Assembly (NCBI GenBank): GCA_039808825.1
Contig: JBDHTV010000002.1
Span: forward strand, 1-37,612
Reading direction: 5' to 3'
DNA: 37,612 bases
From: Bdellovibrionales bacterium
GTDB lineage: Bacteria > Pseudomonadota > Alphaproteobacteria > UBA9219 > RFNS01
The notes beneath the pieces are model-generated. The model made no database searches and was not told the origin of the DNA. It saw nothing but the letters and a program-made list of their open reading frames with translations. The stretch's first letter is position 1; each line of letters opens with the position of its first letter. This document shows, one piece after another, positions 1 to 5,619 of the stretch. Position numbers and translations under genes: made by a program.

Positions 1-70
1 TGACCCGTGGCAAATTTGGCAATTTATTGATCGCGGCTATAAATTCATGGGTAAGAGTTTTCGGTGTCAT
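1..70 (-). CDS. 5' end of an unknown ORF running off the left edge (MTPKTLTHEFIAAINKLPNLPRV...)
   Basis: The ATG at 70..68 overlaps the TGA stop (69..67) of the upstream 91-aa ORF as an ATGA junction. The frame stays open to position 1. This ORF is not in the ORF track; I read it directly from the sequence. Confidence 0.3.
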   Translation of the reverse strand, partial: MTPKTLTHEFIAAINKLPNLPRV

Positions 71-341
71 CGGTTCAGCTCCTTGTGTTCGTCCGAGAGC
101 CTGATTGTGAGCGGGTGCGGCCTACCTCTGGTAACACCATTGGTAACACCGCTTGGAATACCCTCGCGCTTTAGCGCACCAGAGTTTGGTGGTAACACCA
201 TACTCTCAACTTGCGTGAAACTTTTGGTGTTACCAATTTCTTCCTGTTGGTATTCCACTTGGTATTCCGCTTTTGGTTTGCATACTTCCTTGGACGCCAG
301 CCGAAATTGTGACTTCATCGCACTGCGTAATTCGTTGCTCA
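67..341 (-). CDS. Hypothetical small protein (91 aa from MSNELRS)
   Basis: The internal ATG at 341..339 is preceded by GGAGATATAT, a good RBS, and the stop is coupled to the next ORF. The protein has short peptide repeats (GVTNGVT, EYQVEYQ) that coincide with the DNA repeat array. No recognisable family. Confidence 0.4.
129..268. repeat. Phased array of short motifs in both orientations (TGGTAACACC / TGGAATACC and their reverse complements)
   Basis: TGGTAACACC occurs at 129, 141 and 190, and TGGAATACC at 154. The reverse complements are GGTGTTACCA at 226 and GGTATTCC(A) at 249 and 261. Neighbouring copies are spaced 12-13 bp. Confidence 0.6.
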
Positions 342-440
342 TATATATCTCCGTGAAAAATATCCCTGTCGCGCAAAGCTGTTGGGCTGGCACGTTCAGA
401 GACGATTGGGGTTTCGGTTCAATGTCGGGTGGTGGGTTAA

Positions 441-476
441 TAAAAAAGCCACCGGTCTGCGTGAGGCCAGTGGCTT
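441..476 (-). terminator. Putative rho-independent terminator (minus strand)
   Basis: On the minus strand AGCCACTGG-N11-CCGGTGGCT forms a 9-bp stem with one mismatch, followed by TTTTTTATT. It lies downstream of the 698..1210 gene. Confidence 0.5.
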
Positions 477-697
477 AATCTGTAGGGACAGAAAATTGTC
501 CCCCTATACTATGTATGCAGACTGCGGTTTTTGGGCTTAGGTCGTTTTTTGCTTATGCTCCGTCACTTCGATGAGTGTTCCAACCCACGCAAGATTTAGC
601 GAGCCAAGTTTTTTATGTAAGGTCTCGTGAGCCTTGGCATTCCAAAACACGATGGGTTTATCGTTTGTCATGTGTGCAACCAGCCCCATTCTTGGCC

Positions 698-1210
698 TCA
701 GGCTTTCCAGCCGACAGGTTTAGTGACCACGATAGCCGCCAAATGCCACTGACTTGCCAAATCGCCAAGGCCACGCTTGAGGCACACAAGCGCCCGTGAG
801 TTCCTCGCTGGCTGGGAATGGCCGCATATCTCAATGACAGCGTTCAAATCCTCCGGCGCGACTATCTGGCGGGACAGCTTCAGCAGTTTCTCAACCGCTG
901 TTTCCTTCCATGCGGCATGTTCTGCACTGGTCGGTCTGAAGTCCTTCCGGCGCAGCAATACCACACCATAATAGGCTCGGTGGAAGCGCCGTCCAGCACG
1001 GTATTCTTCCCAGTTGATAACCCCATTGTCGCGATAGGCATCCAAAGGGCATTCCCAAACTGCACGATAGCGTTTGATGAAATGGCCCGGTCGGCTACTG
1101 CCAGGAATGACTTCCCTGATTAAACCGCCATTCTGCCGGTGACGTTCATTTGTTGGAGAGACCCACGTTCTGGGGCCGGTAATAGACTTTTGGCGTTTAT
1201 GTTTCCGCAT
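698..1210 (-). CDS. Hypothetical protein, mobile-element style (basic N-terminus, possible C-terminal HTH-like region)
   Basis: 170-aa ORF with a GGAGG-like RBS (cggaggtattcaATG). It is divergent from the XRE gene across an AT-rich spacer. The stretch PLDAYRDNGVINWEEYRAGRRF vaguely recalls alphaproteobacterial element-borne DUF proteins, but this is not verifiable here. Confidence 0.5.
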   Translation of the reverse strand: MRKHKRQKSITGPRTWVSPTNERHRQNGGLIREVIPGSSRPGHFIKRYRAVWECPLDAYRDNGVINWEEYRAGRRFHRAYYGVVLLRRKDFRPTSAEHAAWKETAVEKLLKLSRQIVAPEDLNAVIEICGHSQPARNSRALVCLKRGLGDLASQWHLAAIVVTKPVGWKA

Positions 1211-1329
1211 TGAATACCTCCGTTAAAAATGGCCTGCTTTAAAAAATGAACGTTTTATAAAAATTCAGTTTATAGACGAGTCATAGCACGGAAATTTCGA
1301 AAGTCAAGATAATTCTACAATTTGGATGC

Positions 1330-1448
1330 TTGTTGTATTCATATTGGATTGTGATAGACGAAATAGACTGATTAGTTTGTTGTATTTTCATATAAATGCC
1401 TGTTTTGTGATATTTTATTGATTTATCCACATTCGTGGTATATATAAT
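1330..1448. promoter_or_regulatory. Divergent promoter/operator region: direct repeats TTGTTGTATT(TT)CATAT plus a perfect TATAAT 5 nt before the XRE ATG
   Basis: The repeats lie at 1330..1344 and 1377..1393. TATAAT lies at 1443..1448 and the ATG at 1454, with no SD sequence, which is a leaderless-type arrangement. The surrounding sequence is strongly AT-rich. Confidence 0.4.
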
Positions 1449-1453
1449 CCATT

Positions 1454-2107
1454 ATGAATATAACAGGACGACAAATACGCGGGGCACGGGGCCTGCTGGG
1501 CTGGTCGATGGAAGAGCTAGCCGACAAGGCTGGCATTTCCCGCATCACCATACGGCAGATCGAAGGCGAAGTCGCGCAACCGCAGGAACGCACTCTGGCC
1601 AGCCTGCTTGCAGCCTTCGACAAGGAAGGAATCGAGTTTCAGGATAACGAGGGCGTGTGTATCCGCAAGCATCAAATGCGGACATACAGCGGCAAGGCCG
1701 GTTATCGCCAGCTGCTCGACCATGTCTATGAAACGGTCAAGAAAGGCGGGCGTATCCGCCAATTCAATTTCGGCGATGACCGCTACGTCTCGATTGCGGA
1801 CGATGCTGCCGCCGAGCATATCCAGCGCATGGAAGAGATCGAAGGGCTGGATGCCAAGGTGCTGGTGCTGGAAGGAGAGATCGGCAATCCCGTCAGCTAT
1901 TGCAGCTACCGGACGTTGAATGCCGACTATGCTGATATGGCTCCGTGGTATCTGTATGGAGATATTCTGATCCTCCCCTTAACCGAGGGCGGCAGGCGCG
2001 AGTGTGTCACCATCCAGTCCAAACAAGTCGCCGAACGCTATATCCGCGAGTTTGATTTGTTCTGGAATAAGGGCATTCCGGGCGAAAAACGCCCTAAAAA
2101 GGCATGA
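1454..2107 (+). CDS. XRE/HTH_3 family transcriptional regulator with ~150-aa unassigned C-terminal domain
   Basis: The N-terminus ITGRQIRGARGLLGWSMEELADKAGISRITIRQIEGE is a typical Cro/C1-type HTH. Confidence 0.8.
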   Translation: MNITGRQIRGARGLLGWSMEELADKAGISRITIRQIEGEVAQPQERTLASLLAAFDKEGIEFQDNEGVCIRKHQMRTYSGKAGYRQLLDHVYETVKKGGRIRQFNFGDDRYVSIADDAAAEHIQRMEEIEGLDAKVLVLEGEIGNPVSYCSYRTLNADYADMAPWYLYGDILILPLTEGGRRECVTIQSKQVAERYIREFDLFWNKGIPGEKRPKKA

Positions 2108-2222
2108 AAGTAAAAGAACATTACACTTATAGATACCGGTTTTTGGTAGGATAGCGGCTGCTCTGAATAGAGCTTATGCCAAGAACCCATGCATAGCGCA
2201 TCAGGTTTACCGAGTTGAGGGC

Positions 2223-2561
2223 ATGATGACTGAAGAACACAAGGAAAAATCTGACCTGCAAAAGGCACTCGATCTCGACGCGGAGATTGAGGATTGGCGT
2301 AGTGAAGTCACCAATCGGATTATCGCGCTTCATGATAAAATTGATGAAGCAGAAGAAAACAACAATCAGAAGCTTGCTGATCAGCTTGACAAGGAACTGG
2401 GTGTCTGGATCAGCGTCAGTCAGGCCGGGTATTCGTGTGCTGAAGAGAGCAAACAAGGGCGCGAGATATTAGATTTAGTCCGCACGCAGAAGAAAGAGTC
2501 TGAGGCTCGTCTTGCCTCTTACCGAAAGAAGCAAAAAGACCTGAATAGCACTGGTCAGTAA
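2223..2561 (+). CDS. Small acidic helical protein (candidate epsilon-like antitoxin)
   Basis: 112-aa ORF rich in D/E/K that looks coiled-coil-like. It ends 15 nt before the zeta-type kinase gene. GAGGG precedes the tandem ATGATG start (2223 or 2226). Confidence 0.5.
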   Translation: MMTEEHKEKSDLQKALDLDAEIEDWRSEVTNRIIALHDKIDEAEENNNQKLADQLDKELGVWISVSQAGYSCAEESKQGREILDLVRTQKKESEARLASYRKKQKDLNSTGQ

Positions 2562-2576
2562 TTAGGCATTGAGAAT

Positions 2577-4103
2577 ATGGCGGCTCAAGAACCATCAACC
2601 CCGAAACGCATCAAGCGCTCAAAACAGATGTCGCGTCAAGACATCTATGACAAGAACATTTCAAGACAACTATTTTCCGGGAAGAGCCCATCTGTAGAGC
2701 CAACAGTCATTTTCTTGGTTGGGCAAGCTGGTGCAGGAAAGTCCGGACTGAGCAAGGCTCAGGAAGATCGGCTTGCCGCTTCTGGTCAACCGGTTCTCAT
2801 TGATCCTGATAACCTGCGCAAATATAATCGCGACTATCACCACAATGTTCGTAGCGATAGTCGAACCGCAGCTAACAAGGCAGAAGTTGGCGCGTGGACG
2901 CAGGAAGCTTTTCTGGAAGGCTTGGTGCGTCGCACGAACATTATTCTCGACGGCACTGGTGCAAACACTGATCGTGTCAAAGAGCGGATCGCCTATGCCC
3001 ATGCGTCCGGATACAAAGTAGAAGTACACGCTGTTGCTGCACGGGGTATCGATAGCTGGATTGGGGTGCTGGATCGGCATGAGCAAGGAAAAGATAAAGA
3101 CAGGGCCAATCCTCATAGTGAGCCGCGCGCACGTTTTGTTCCTAAACCGATCCATGACGAACATGCCCGCGATTTGCTGAAGACTTTAGCTGAAGTTGAG
3201 CATCTCGGACTCTGCAACCGTATTGCAGTCTGGCGTAGAGGTAGTTTCGACGCGCCGCTTTACGACAACCCCAAAGCTAGCAAAGGGAATACGCTAGGGG
3301 CCGTTCAAGCCCTCGTTACGGAGCGGAACCGACCGCTTACGGCTCTAGAGCAAGGCCACAGGAGCGATGCACTACAACGCATTAGCGATTTCATGGGAAT
3401 GCGGAATGCTTCCCCTTTGGAGCGGGGCGAAGCTCAGCTTCTGGCTGCTCAGGAACATAATCATGGGTTCACACGGAGTGCAGCCCGAACCTGCGCGAGT
3501 TTAAAGCCGGACGTGCCGGTTGATCTCTATCTCACAAATCCGCAAGCGCAACAGCGCTATGCAAAGCAAGCGCGACGCTATGTATTCTGGCACCTGACCG
3601 AGCGCGAAAAACTAGGCGCCTCCCCCGAGCGCGTGGCCGCGATGGGCGCTAGACTATTCGGTAGGCTGCGGAACCCTGCCCTTGGCTTCGGGATCAAAGA
3701 AGGGCTGGAGCTGGCCGTGTTAAGGCGGCAGATGGCAGCAGCCCCCTCACCGCAGCTGGTGCAGTCCTATTTTGATAAGCGTGAACGCCTCATTGTTGAT
3801 TTGATGCGCGCTCGCAACGCCCATGGGGCAGGCAGGCAACGGACACACGCACAAGTCCAGCAGGCCGATATCACCAACAGTTGGGCGGAACTTGAATATA
3901 CGCAGACGGCAACGCTACGGCGTAAGGCCAGCATAGGAAAACTGCTTATCACGCCTCAGCCTGAGGCCGAGGCGAAATTAGAGGAAGCCCGGCTACGCAC
4001 TATGGCGCGTTTGCAGCAGGGCAAGAAGAAGACGGGCAAGAATACAGCCGTGACAAAGGATCAGAAATCCAGACGGCTGGGGATGAGACCGGGACAGATA
4101 TAA
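2577..4103 (+). CDS. Zeta-toxin family P-loop kinase domain protein with ~280-aa C-terminal extension
   Basis: Walker A motif VIFLVGQAGAGKSG, the catalytic-Asp region PVLIDPDNLRKY and NIILDGTGAN are laid out as in Zeta/PezT-type kinases. Residues from about 230 to 508 carry no recognisable motif. Confidence 0.75.
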   Translation: MAAQEPSTPKRIKRSKQMSRQDIYDKNISRQLFSGKSPSVEPTVIFLVGQAGAGKSGLSKAQEDRLAASGQPVLIDPDNLRKYNRDYHHNVRSDSRTAANKAEVGAWTQEAFLEGLVRRTNIILDGTGANTDRVKERIAYAHASGYKVEVHAVAARGIDSWIGVLDRHEQGKDKDRANPHSEPRARFVPKPIHDEHARDLLKTLAEVEHLGLCNRIAVWRRGSFDAPLYDNPKASKGNTLGAVQALVTERNRPLTALEQGHRSDALQRISDFMGMRNASPLERGEAQLLAAQEHNHGFTRSAARTCASLKPDVPVDLYLTNPQAQQRYAKQARRYVFWHLTEREKLGASPERVAAMGARLFGRLRNPALGFGIKEGLELAVLRRQMAAAPSPQLVQSYFDKRERLIVDLMRARNAHGAGRQRTHAQVQQADITNSWAELEYTQTATLRRKASIGKLLITPQPEAEAKLEEARLRTMARLQQGKKKTGKNTAVTKDQKSRRLGMRPGQI

Positions 4104-4173
4104 TCTTTCCGGCATTTGTTGCTGATTTTTAAAGCTGATTTGAACATATTGAACCTTATTGGAAGGCATATTC

Positions 4174-5430
4174 ATGATTCAGGCTACGCCATTGATGCGA
4201 CAAATCGGCGGCCTCTGCACGGCTGTTATACCCTACGAGCAAACCGACCCCATTCATCGCAGTGCGCTCGGCAGCGTTCTGCGCGACGCGGTGCAGCATG
4301 AAGCCAAGGTTCACGGTGCAGATTTCAATTATGCTGGCTTCCGCAATGTTATGCAGGCGATGGCCAAGGGTGATGTTGAGGTTCTGTTCTTTGCCGCCGC
4401 CTGGGATGTCTGTGAGCCCAAGATTATCGGTGCGACGATTAATTTTCCGTCGGTGTCCCTAGAGCGCAAAGGCGATGATATCGTGGCTAAGCGCGGCATC
4501 TATAGCGAGGATGTTTGTATTCTGCCGTCAAAAATCCGTGATCTCATCGTCGAGCGACCTGTTGGAGGGAAATTTCCAGAGGCAGGGATTGGTACGCATT
4601 TTATTCAAGCCAGCGTGAGCCATTACGCCAGAAACGGTATGCTTGATGGCTCCATCCCTGCTGGACAGACCTTTGAGTTTGCTCCGACGAACGGCCAGAT
4701 TGTGAAAATCCAAGAGCAGCTTGGCGCACGGCTTGGTCATGATAGGGATAGCAGCCTGTTGCGGCTGGAACGGTTAAGAAGCCCAATCTTCAATCAATGG
4801 GTCGTGCCGGTTGAAGTGGCTGCTATTCCGTTACCGAATGGCGCAACCGATCCGAACAACTTTATTGTCCGCTGGTCTGGCGCTGACGGCAAACAGAAGA
4901 TTGAGGCGGCTTTCACCAAAGGCATTTCGACCTTCAAAGGCACGACCGTGACGCAAGCCCAGTTTATCAGTAACGGCAAGCTTCCGGACATGCCCGTAGT
5001 AGAAAGTGTTCTGGCTTCAATCTTAAGAGCCGCCAATCACGAAATCCGTATGCGTCGCTGGGGACATTTAAAGAATAAACCGCCAGCACAATATAGCCCT
5101 CTCATCCCCTTGTTGGCGGACAGGCAGCAAGGGTTCAAAGCTCTGATACACGCCCAGTGTTATGAATTGTTCTCCCCTGCCCCGGCCAAAGACAACAGCC
5201 TGCTATTTGGCGTCAAGCCACCGCCGATGCATCTCCATGTGTTGAGAGGGCCAGAACTGGCCGCAGGGCTGCGGACGCTCGGCGCAACATCCCGCATACT
5301 AGGATCAAACCCCATGCAAACGGCAACGCTTGACCTGCTAAAAGGCACGGGACACGATCACGCCACCAAGCCACTGAGGCTAATAGGATCGTGGCCAGGG
5401 CATACACCGCTATTCTCATTGGCTGCGTAA
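4174..5430 (+). CDS. Hypothetical protein (418 aa)
   Basis: The long ORF has an ATG at 4174 with GGAAGG 7 nt upstream; the track start at 4159 is a TTG. A weak GNAT-like stretch (PEAGIGTHFIQASVSHYARNG) is the only hint of family. Confidence 0.55.
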   Translation: MIQATPLMRQIGGLCTAVIPYEQTDPIHRSALGSVLRDAVQHEAKVHGADFNYAGFRNVMQAMAKGDVEVLFFAAAWDVCEPKIIGATINFPSVSLERKGDDIVAKRGIYSEDVCILPSKIRDLIVERPVGGKFPEAGIGTHFIQASVSHYARNGMLDGSIPAGQTFEFAPTNGQIVKIQEQLGARLGHDRDSSLLRLERLRSPIFNQWVVPVEVAAIPLPNGATDPNNFIVRWSGADGKQKIEAAFTKGISTFKGTTVTQAQFISNGKLPDMPVVESVLASILRAANHEIRMRRWGHLKNKPPAQYSPLIPLLADRQQGFKALIHAQCYELFSPAPAKDNSLLFGVKPPPMHLHVLRGPELAAGLRTLGATSRILGSNPMQTATLDLLKGTGHDHATKPLRLIGSWPGHTPLFSLAA

Positions 5431-5619
5431 CTCTTAGTTGGTTAGAACAGCATATGCCCAGTCGGCTTAGATTGGACATATAGCCATTACAATACAAATA
5501 ACTTGCTACCGTATCTTATATCACGAAACATTATCCAAAATGCTAAGACAGCGCTGGAATTTGCTTTAATGCCGCATGATGAGCCATGCTGGAGCCAATT
5601 GCTGCATATACATCAAGCC

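Follow-up and report, generated by a model that had tools for sequence, protein, structure and literature searches.

We analyzed four co-directional genes near the left end of a 37,612-nucleotide (nt) stretch of DNA (the window: positions 1 to 37,612 of contig JBDHTV010000002.1, assembly GCA_039808825.1), deposited under Bdellovibrionales and placed by GTDB in the Alphaproteobacteria (UBA9219; RFNS01). All four lie on the forward strand. They encode a 217-amino acid (aa) XRE-family regulator (HTH-217, 1454..2107), a small candidate antitoxin or immunity protein (sm112, 2226..2561), a 508-aa kinase of the zeta/PezT type (2577..4103), and a 418-aa protein with a predicted acyltransferase fold (GNAT-418, 4174..5430). 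An earlier note had read them from the sequence as one cassette following the logic of omega-epsilon-zeta, with the 418-aa protein as the kinase's dedicated downstream partner, and could match the whole to no described toxin–antitoxin (TA) or defense system. The listing of open reading frames (ORFs) bore out the four genes. Our comparisons with related contigs showed that they are not a new four-gene system; two of them very probably form an epsilon/zeta-type pair that combines a new antitoxin family with a new, very rare C-terminal module associated with type IV coupling proteins (T4CPs).

All window proteins were compared by tblastn with every related locus, which gave the presence and identity figures reported here. 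The compared contigs are named L001 to L030 and the compared proteins P0054 to P0059; all relatives are metagenome-assembled sequence, from uncultured Rhodospirillales, other Alphaproteobacteria, and one Paludibacterium metagenome-assembled genome (MAG). In nine independent relatives, a gap of only ∼85–110 nt separates the HTH-217 gene from the 418-aa gene that comes after it, and neither a kinase nor a small acidic protein is encoded there. The sm112 and kinase genes are confined to L001–L008, L017, and L018. The nearest relative with an empty site, L019, encodes an HTH protein of 93% and a 418-aa protein of 72% identity; homology to it ends at ∼2113 and restarts at ∼4117, and these junctions delimit an insertion of ∼2.0 kb (∼2114..4116, forward strand). 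A tree built from the 418-aa protein groups all loci that carry the insertion in a single clade, to which L019 is sister; the pair was therefore acquired once. We regard it as nearly certain that sm112 and the kinase constitute a two-gene, ∼2-kb insertion in the HTH–GNAT spacer and that the locus is a composite. The pair's closeness to the regulator and to the 418-aa gene is an accident of its landing site and does not argue for a functional partnership. The four genes do co-occur in other genomes, but only within the one clade that inherited this single insertion; neither the four-gene cassette nor the dedicated downstream partner survived the comparison. A weak terminator-like hairpin with a T-run (4110–4124) sits exactly on the right junction, and similar sequence is found in the empty-site L019.

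The 508-aa protein holds a complete, motif-intact zeta kinase. Pfam, NCBIfam, and PADLOC-DB 2.0 profiles were applied to the window proteins; Pfam Zeta_toxin (PF06414) matched residues 38–223 (E = 3.5e-35), and NCBIfam gave a subthreshold match to PezT. Residues 30–231 align to the structures of zeta (1GVN; E = 8.5e-13) and PezT (2P5T; E = 7.8e-11) with the Walker A (GQxGxGK), IDxD, xGTG, RxE, and AR..PK motifs in register. The kinase carries GQAGAGKSG at residues 49–57, IDPDNLR at 75–81, and LDGTGAN at 124–130; K55 of Walker A, D76, D125-G-T127, R167, and R186 line up with the catalytic positions of zeta, and the motifs are conserved across the family. That family is small: a search of 5.8 billion clustered proteins returned only eight close full-length relatives. 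The zeta-type assignment and the oversized length noted previously are thus confirmed.

An AlphaFold2 (AF2) model built on a shallow alignment of 13 sequences (predicted local distance difference test [pLDDT] 79; predicted template modeling score 0.75) divides the protein into a kinase domain (residues ∼30–290, 2664..3446), a disordered linker (291–309), an all-helical bundle (315–490, pLDDT up to 94), and a disordered tail (486–508). In Foldseek, the kinase domain superposed on the complete chains of zeta (1GVN/3Q8X; E = 8.5e-13) and PezT, with target-normalized template modeling (TM) scores of 0.79–0.82 (0.79 for 1GVN/3Q8X and 0.81 for PezT); AvrRxo1 (E ∼3e-4) and ng_zeta1 (E ∼1e-2) were much more distant. 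Because the superposition spans full chains, the enzyme is a classical zeta/PezT kinase, and the part left to explain is ∼200 aa rather than the ∼280 aa estimated earlier, as the zeta fold reaches residue ∼290. That this remainder lacks a recognizable domain held true: the helical region, which we call the X domain, has no Pfam or NCBIfam family. The Foldseek list for the full model was dominated by P-loop kinases and is silent on X.

The stop codon of sm112 lies 15 nt before the kinase gene. Its ORF (2223–2561) encodes 112 aa, but the family alignment suggests the second Met, at 2226, as the start, giving 111 aa; the acidic character and the 15-nt gap described before both stood (pI 4.9, with 25 Asp/Glu and 18 Lys/Arg residues), and only the start moved. 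In the two T4CP-linked zeta-plus-X loci, the small gene directly 5′ of the toxin gene shares 4 nt with it and encodes an sm112 homologue (identity 35% and 32%; E = 6e-16 and 2e-13, respectively). The small proteins encoded 5′ of X genes without a zeta domain are related to one another and unrelated to sm112. The small upstream protein thus goes with the toxin domain and not with X, as is typical of cognate antitoxins and immunity proteins, and this agrees with the earlier pairing of sm112 with the kinase. sm112, which has no Pfam match, is a candidate antitoxin of a new sequence family, and sm112 and the kinase very probably form a TA pair of the epsilon/zeta type.

The pair resembles epsilon/zeta of pSM19035 (zeta, 1GVN/3Q8X) and PezAT (PezT, 2P5T) in its complete zeta fold with Walker A, catalytic Asp, xGTG, and Arg motifs, in the small acidic co-directional gene directly upstream, and in its location on a mobile element; such pairs stabilize islands and plasmids. 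Unlike them, the window toxin adds a linker, an X domain of ∼165 helical residues, and a basic tail, its small partner has no sequence similarity to epsilon or PezA, and the pair sits inside another operon with no dedicated regulator of the omega or PezA type. In that family, the toxin phosphorylates UDP-GlcNAc or other UDP-sugars. The earlier note could not place the genes in a described TA system; the core of the pair falls in the epsilon/zeta (PezAT) family, and oversized zeta toxins with a C-terminal signal for a type IV secretion system (T4SS) have been described (PMC5675462, PMC6509941).

X spans residues ∼301–466 (3477..3974), an all-helical, basic module bounded by a local hidden Markov model (HMM) and the AF2 model, and is followed by a C-terminal helix and a disordered, strongly basic tail (3975..4100). 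An exhaustive phmmer search with kinase residues 236–508 against 1.84 billion representatives found X in just eight proteins. A word-indexed search with the X alignment returned the 508-aa family again and nothing more, and a metagenome scan with it added two fragments of the same family. X was absent from 72,556 plasmids and from a viral contig set (P0054 serving for the plasmid search and P0057 for the viral-contig scan), and megablast of window positions 1–5600 against the plasmids gave no match. Among the 508-aa proteins, X is conserved at least as well as the kinase domain (93/85/71% vs. 76/72/72%). Its core is basic in seven of the eight copies, and X with its tail has a pI of 10.5–12. 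The last 40 aa of the window kinase carry a net charge of +9 (pI 11.7) and are disordered in the AF2 model; net charges in the window family run from +9 to +11.

X also occurs on other proteins. P0056 (624 aa) and P0057 (607 aa) consist of an N-terminal module, Zeta_toxin, and a C-terminal X, whereas P0058 (484 aa) and P0059 (591 aa) share the N-terminal module and C-terminal X but differ in their central region, which lacks kinase motifs and matches no Pfam family. P0054 (509 aa) is two tandem X domains and nothing else. In all four informative loci (L026, L027, L028, and L030), the X gene adjoins a T4CP gene (PF02534, PF10412, PF12696). The order in the first three is T4CP, small gene or genes, and X protein; in L030 the X-X protein precedes the T4CP. 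Because X lies C-terminally on at least two central domains and its genes are T4CP-adjacent, the most likely role for it is T4CP docking or translocation. From this architecture and context, we tentatively propose, at somewhat short of an even chance, that linker, X, and basic tail act together as such a signal.

Some further features of these loci were recorded. A conserved protein of ∼265 aa with weak vWA-like similarity (33–72% identity) is encoded 3′ of the X genes in four loci (L026 9318–10118, L028 6075–6869, L029 1759–2556, and L027 7165–7896). The T4CPs are unusually long (1073–1124 aa), and in that of L027 only the first ∼400 aa resemble VirD4/TraG, at ∼30% identity. The ∼100-aa N-terminal module of P0056–P0059 comprises a beta-rich segment (V.V.G....V.YK..G..VEIV.A.K) and a Lys/Glu-rich helix; the window kinase does not have it.

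The closest architectural parallel is with zeta toxins that carry a BID domain. PezT/Zeta-BID proteins (tBID-alpha) on alphaproteobacterial conjugative plasmids, such as plasmid 1 of Chelativorans BNC1, are proposed T4SS substrates, and the FIC-BID toxin VbhT is secreted by a conjugative T4SS (PMC5675462, with PMC6509941 for Zeta-BID). On Shinella p3_Teo12, a TraA relaxase gene and an 89-aa gene precede WP_318914515.1, an 823-aa "BID domain-containing T4SS effector" that has its zeta domain at the N terminus. Zeta-BID and the window kinase share one layout, in which a zeta kinase at the N terminus is followed by a helical C-terminal domain and a positive tail, and a small gene lies upstream; Zeta-BID is encoded in or beside the DNA transfer and replication (Dtr) or T4CP genes of alphaproteobacterial transfer systems, and relatives with X adjoin T4CP genes. 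However, the C-terminal domain of the window kinase is not BID, the protein has 508 aa compared with 823 aa in Shinella, its carrier lacks a T4SS of its own, and the small upstream proteins of the two are unrelated. VbhT is organized along the same lines, as a TA toxin that ends in a delivery module, is preceded by the gene of a small antitoxin, and is encoded beside relaxase/Dtr genes, but it has a FIC fold instead of a zeta kinase and another signal domain, and its translocation has been demonstrated, whereas for the window kinase translocation is a conjecture.

The effectors of Xanthomonadales (X-Tfe) have variable toxin domains, a conserved C-terminal XVIPCD of ∼120 aa that is recognized by VirD4, and cognate immunity genes. 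A similar combination of toxin, C-terminal domain, and putative immunity gene is seen with X-bearing proteins; X has no Pfam match of any kind, and the hosts and the type of T4SS differ. The ng_epsilon1/ng_zeta1 pair of Neisseria gonorrhoeae conjugative plasmids (6EPG; PMC5923241) offers another likeness, being Gram-negative with an oversized zeta (401 aa), an extra C-terminal domain, and a nonepsilon antitoxin. Its extra domain is an OB fold rather than a helical bundle, and its kinase is topologically rewired and only distantly similar (Foldseek E ∼1e-2 vs. 1e-12 for classical zeta).

The genes around the insertion belong to a family of mobile elements. In L001, an element with a tyrosine integrase, ArdC, DUF736, a PF03432 relaxase, and NikA/MobC ends with the p170, HTH, small protein, kinase, and 418-aa genes and, like the window element, adjoins porin-NrdG-NrdD genes. 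The same five genes recur together in the contigs of close kinase relatives. The p170 gene (698..1210, reverse strand) encodes a basic protein of 170 aa (pI 10.5) that occurs in every sufficiently long related locus at 28–89% identity, always divergent from the HTH gene, and that matches nothing in Pfam, PADLOC, or NCBIfam. HTH-217 is the most conserved backbone protein, at 69–96% identity in all loci whether or not a kinase is present. As the earlier note had it, only a small part of it is HTH: Pfam HTH_3 (PF01381) spans residues 8–58 (E = 1.8e-8, above the gathering score), and the remainder is a 150-aa C-terminal domain without a family match. PADLOC yields only generic HTH matches for it. 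An integrase and a relaxase with its accessory protein, with no mating-pair-formation genes, are found in L001, L009/10, L011/12, L013, and L015, which identifies these as integrative mobilizable elements (IMEs). The p170, HTH-217, and GNAT-418 genes are backbone genes of this IME family of uncultured Alpha- and Betaproteobacteria. A search for att-like direct repeats flanking the L001 element found only short matches at chance level.

The window copy is a decayed remnant of such an element that has lost its relaxase. Window positions 1–76 are a tyrosine integrase fragment (reverse strand) equivalent to L001 891–966 (85.5% by blastn), inside the Phage_integrase gene of L001 (670–1857, reverse strand). 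From 71 to 1500 the window is collinear with L001 5493–6925, with a 6-nt overlap at the junction; L001 967–5492 is missing. This deletion of ∼4.5 kb removed ArdC, DUF736, the relaxase, most of MobC, and part of the integrase gene. What is left of the NikA-like/MobC relaxosome accessory gene is its N-terminal part (67..393, reverse strand), recognized by collinearity with L001 in an ORF that contains GRPHPLTIRLSDEHKE.

At empty-site loci, a conserved gene for a helical protein of ∼130 aa (p130) follows the 418-aa gene, with p170, NikA/MobC, the relaxase, and a tyrosine or serine recombinase on the other side. The p130 gene (L009 9282–9674, L011 9249–9638, L013 9282–9701, and L015 9183–9584) has no Pfam match, shows 33–58% identity between loci, and is missing from the window, L001, L005, and L006; in the window, a right junction with the chromosome (5431..5619, 41% GC) stands in its place. 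Beyond this junction come the porin, NrdG, and NrdD genes, as they do in L001–L007. The region 3′ of GNAT-418/p130 looks like a cargo slot of these elements (L005 12128–17527; L009/L010 10215–15098; L015 9845–17158; L011/L012 11953–16796). It holds RHS/YD-shell polymorphic toxins in L005 and L009, SNF2 helicase, N6_N4 methylase, and ResIII restriction-like genes in L015, and a radical-SAM/DCD/tRNA-synthetase-like/NUDIX cluster with CDPS in L011/L012. A second, distant HTH-217 paralogue (29% identity over the full length) lies ∼1.2 kb 3′ of the GNAT gene on the opposite strand in L011, L012, and L021 (e.g., L011 10434–11024, reverse strand). L001 and L005 come from one MAG (GCA_963852305.1, contigs 19 and 10), which has two diverged insertion-bearing elements in different chromosomal contexts; their kinases are 79% and 71% identical to the window kinase, and L005 additionally has a duplicated p170 paralogue and an insertion sequence (IS) element. 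Window 5620–37612 is ordinary chromosome devoted to anaerobic metabolism, with an Alginate_exp-type porin, NrdG/NrdD, a multicopper oxidase, U32 peptidases (by synteny with L001), MoeA, a NarK-like MFS transporter, NarG/NarH nitrate reductase, and NnrS; genes for conjugation or a T4SS are absent from it.

GNAT-418 has 418 aa from its ATG or 423 aa from an upstream TTG. Called an orphan before, it has 45 homologue clusters, all unnamed, with identity down to 35%; across our loci identity ranges from 35 to 94%. The suggested GNAT-like character stood at the level of fold, whereas no sequence match was found in Pfam, NCBIfam, PADLOC, or the Protein Data Bank (PDB), Pfam GNAT included. An AF2 model built on a 33-sequence alignment (pLDDT 81, predicted template modeling score 0.81) gave a Foldseek top 50 made up entirely of GNAT or tandem-GNAT enzymes (probability 0.8–1.0, E ∼1e-5 to 1e-4, global TM only 0.2–0.3). 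These included NMT, Eis/Eis2, and the tandem GNAT MAB_4324 (7Q3A), as well as the single GNATs NatD and NatC; for NMT, Eis2, 7Q3A, and NatD the probability was 0.9–1.0. Homologues share an invariant GIYSEDVC strand and then a P..GG.FP..G[IL]G.HF loop, resembling GNAT beta4 and its pyrophosphate-binding loop; the FPxxG[IL]GxHF part is reminiscent of the acyl-CoA-binding Q/RxxGxG/A motif. The model thus predicts the two-GNAT architecture of NMT, Eis, and MAB_4324, together with a motif like their beta4/pyrophosphate loop, and GNAT-418 is probably an acyl-CoA-dependent acyltransferase of the element core. It departs from those enzymes in having no profile match to any GNAT family and low global TM, and in being a backbone gene paired with an XRE regulator. 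We rejected GNAT-418 as a partner of the kinase because it is conserved where no kinase exists.

The spacer between p170 and HTH-217 (1211..1453) is an AT-rich region that probably serves as divergent promoter and operator. Its GC content of 29%, compared with 54–56% in the genes on either side, agrees with what had been noted before, and HTH-217 presumably controls it. An imperfect 31-nt inverted repeat (1320–1350/1446–1476, 77% complementary) spans the divergent promoter, extends to the HTH-217 start codon, and may be an operator. A promoter and terminator scan returned background level only.

Taking these findings together, we favor, with moderate confidence, an epsilon/zeta-like addiction pair lodged in a decayed mobilizable element, its toxin carrying a probable T4SS-recognition module. 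The kinase would phosphorylate UDP-activated cell-wall sugar precursors and so poison wall synthesis, as its family suggests (PMC3062530, PMC5923241), and sm112, by the same family likeness, would neutralize it through direct binding. In the resident cell, the pair would be an addiction module that stabilizes the island, a role in keeping with its intact state in a copy that has lost its transfer genes. The linker, X, and tail would be recognized by a T4CP, and a conjugative or helper T4SS would deliver the toxin to recipients. In L001, the kinase gene is two genes away from NikA/MobC and the relaxase, in an element without T4SS or T4CP.

Several observations weigh against this reading. Pfam, NCBIfam, and PDB profiles do not connect sm112 with epsilon, PezA, or ng_epsilon1, even at E values up to 10; in the classical systems, epsilon or the PezA C-domain is a three-helix bundle that blocks the ATP site of the toxin. 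The X family is tiny: outside the 508-aa family there are five full-length proteins, four with usable contexts, all metagenomic. The alignment of 13 sequences behind the model of X (pLDDT 78–94 over residues 315–415) is shallow. P0054, with X-X and no toxin domain, fits an adaptor as well as a signal. X was found in no relaxase by phmmer or the local HMM, whereas BID is. As a BID domain, X was rejected at the sequence level: the BID profiles NF033856 (E = 1.2e-12) and PF17841 (E = 2.2e-5) match the Shinella control, whereas the window protein, P0054, P0057, and P0059 go unmatched, and hhalign of X against BID gave a probability of 0.1%. Finally, neither the window nor the IME family encodes a T4SS or T4CP of its own. 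With the window relaxase lost, delivery cannot run from this copy unless a helper supplies everything.

Some of these points would suit a plain addiction module in which X acts inside the producer, in substrate selection, nucleic acid or membrane binding, or autoregulation, and is no secretion signal. The OB domain of ng_zeta1 is a precedent for a zeta toxin with an extra C-terminal domain (PMC5923241), the very basic X and tail (pI 10.5–12) would also suit nucleic acid binding, X is not BID, and the kinase gene is intact in a window that has no T4SS and a decayed element. We consider this explanation, the main rival, rather unlikely all the same, since X is modular, present on at least two unrelated central domains and as a toxin-less tandem, and neighbors a T4CP in four of four informative loci; moreover, a flexible linker separates it from the kinase, and a kinase-specific regulatory domain would be unexpected on nonkinase proteins. 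Less probable again is anti-phage abortive infection, in which infection would free the kinase from sm112, the cell would die, and the element would be carrying defense cargo. TA modules on mobile elements often serve defense too, a passage in a PezAT review names phage defense among the proposed TA roles (PMC10532202), and sibling elements have defense-like cargo (SNF2/methylase/ResIII in L015; a KAP NTPase). Yet no PADLOC model matches the kinase, sm112, GNAT-418, or p170, which led us to reject a catalogued defense system and agrees with the earlier failure to place the genes in one. The insertion also lies within the regulatory operon and not in the cargo region 3′ of GNAT/p130, and the T4CP linkage of X points to conjugation over phage sensing.

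The two remaining explanations give the backbone genes a part in the TA system, and both are very improbable. One is the dedicated four-gene system itself, in which HTH-217 would play the part of omega and sm112 that of epsilon, and the 418-aa protein would modify or assist the zeta kinase. All four genes point the same way at short spacing and no strong terminator is predicted between any of them, the pair is probably cotranscribed from the HTH promoter, and all four co-occur in at least five sequence-distinct loci (the window, L006/L017, L001, L005, and L018). However, this co-occurrence is the product of one insertion event, the nine loci described above have HTH-217 next to GNAT-418 and lack the pair, and the zeta-plus-X relatives at T4CP loci have neither gene nearby. 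The other casts HTH-217 as the true antitoxin and sm112 as an accessory protein. PezA has an N-terminal HTH and a C-terminal toxin-binding domain, and HTH-217, with its 150-aa C-terminal domain, shares that two-domain layout and has weak NCBIfam matches to HTH antitoxins. It is, however, 69–93% conserved in elements without any kinase, for which we rejected it as a PezA-like antitoxin, and it is absent from the T4CP-linked zeta-plus-X loci, where sm112 homologues occur.

Within the favored reading of an addiction pair with a T4SS-recognition module, a wider proposal can be made, which we hold to be possible but doubtful, more so than the docking role itself. X and its tail would be a new class of T4SS recognition module, without sequence kinship to BID, XVIPCD, or TSA, that turns zeta kinases and at least one other toxin type into interbacterial effectors delivered by conjugation. 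A T4SS-less island would have captured such a tagged pair; a helper T4SS would then inject the cell-wall poison, and only recipients of both island and antitoxin would survive.

For genome scanning, the practical lesson is that what looked like a four-gene system fell apart on comparison with relatives whose site is empty. Two unnamed families have now been given a context, the backbone set of HTH-217, the tandem-GNAT protein, p170, and p130, and the sm112 antitoxin family. VbhT is the one TA toxin whose recruitment by a conjugative T4SS has been shown; for FIC and zeta toxins with a BID tag, it has been proposed. If the proposal for X is true, X would be a new, compact (∼200-aa) candidate signal for T4CP recognition, and an independent, non-BID module on different toxin cores encoded beside T4CP genes would mean that such recruitment arose several times over, by way of different tags.

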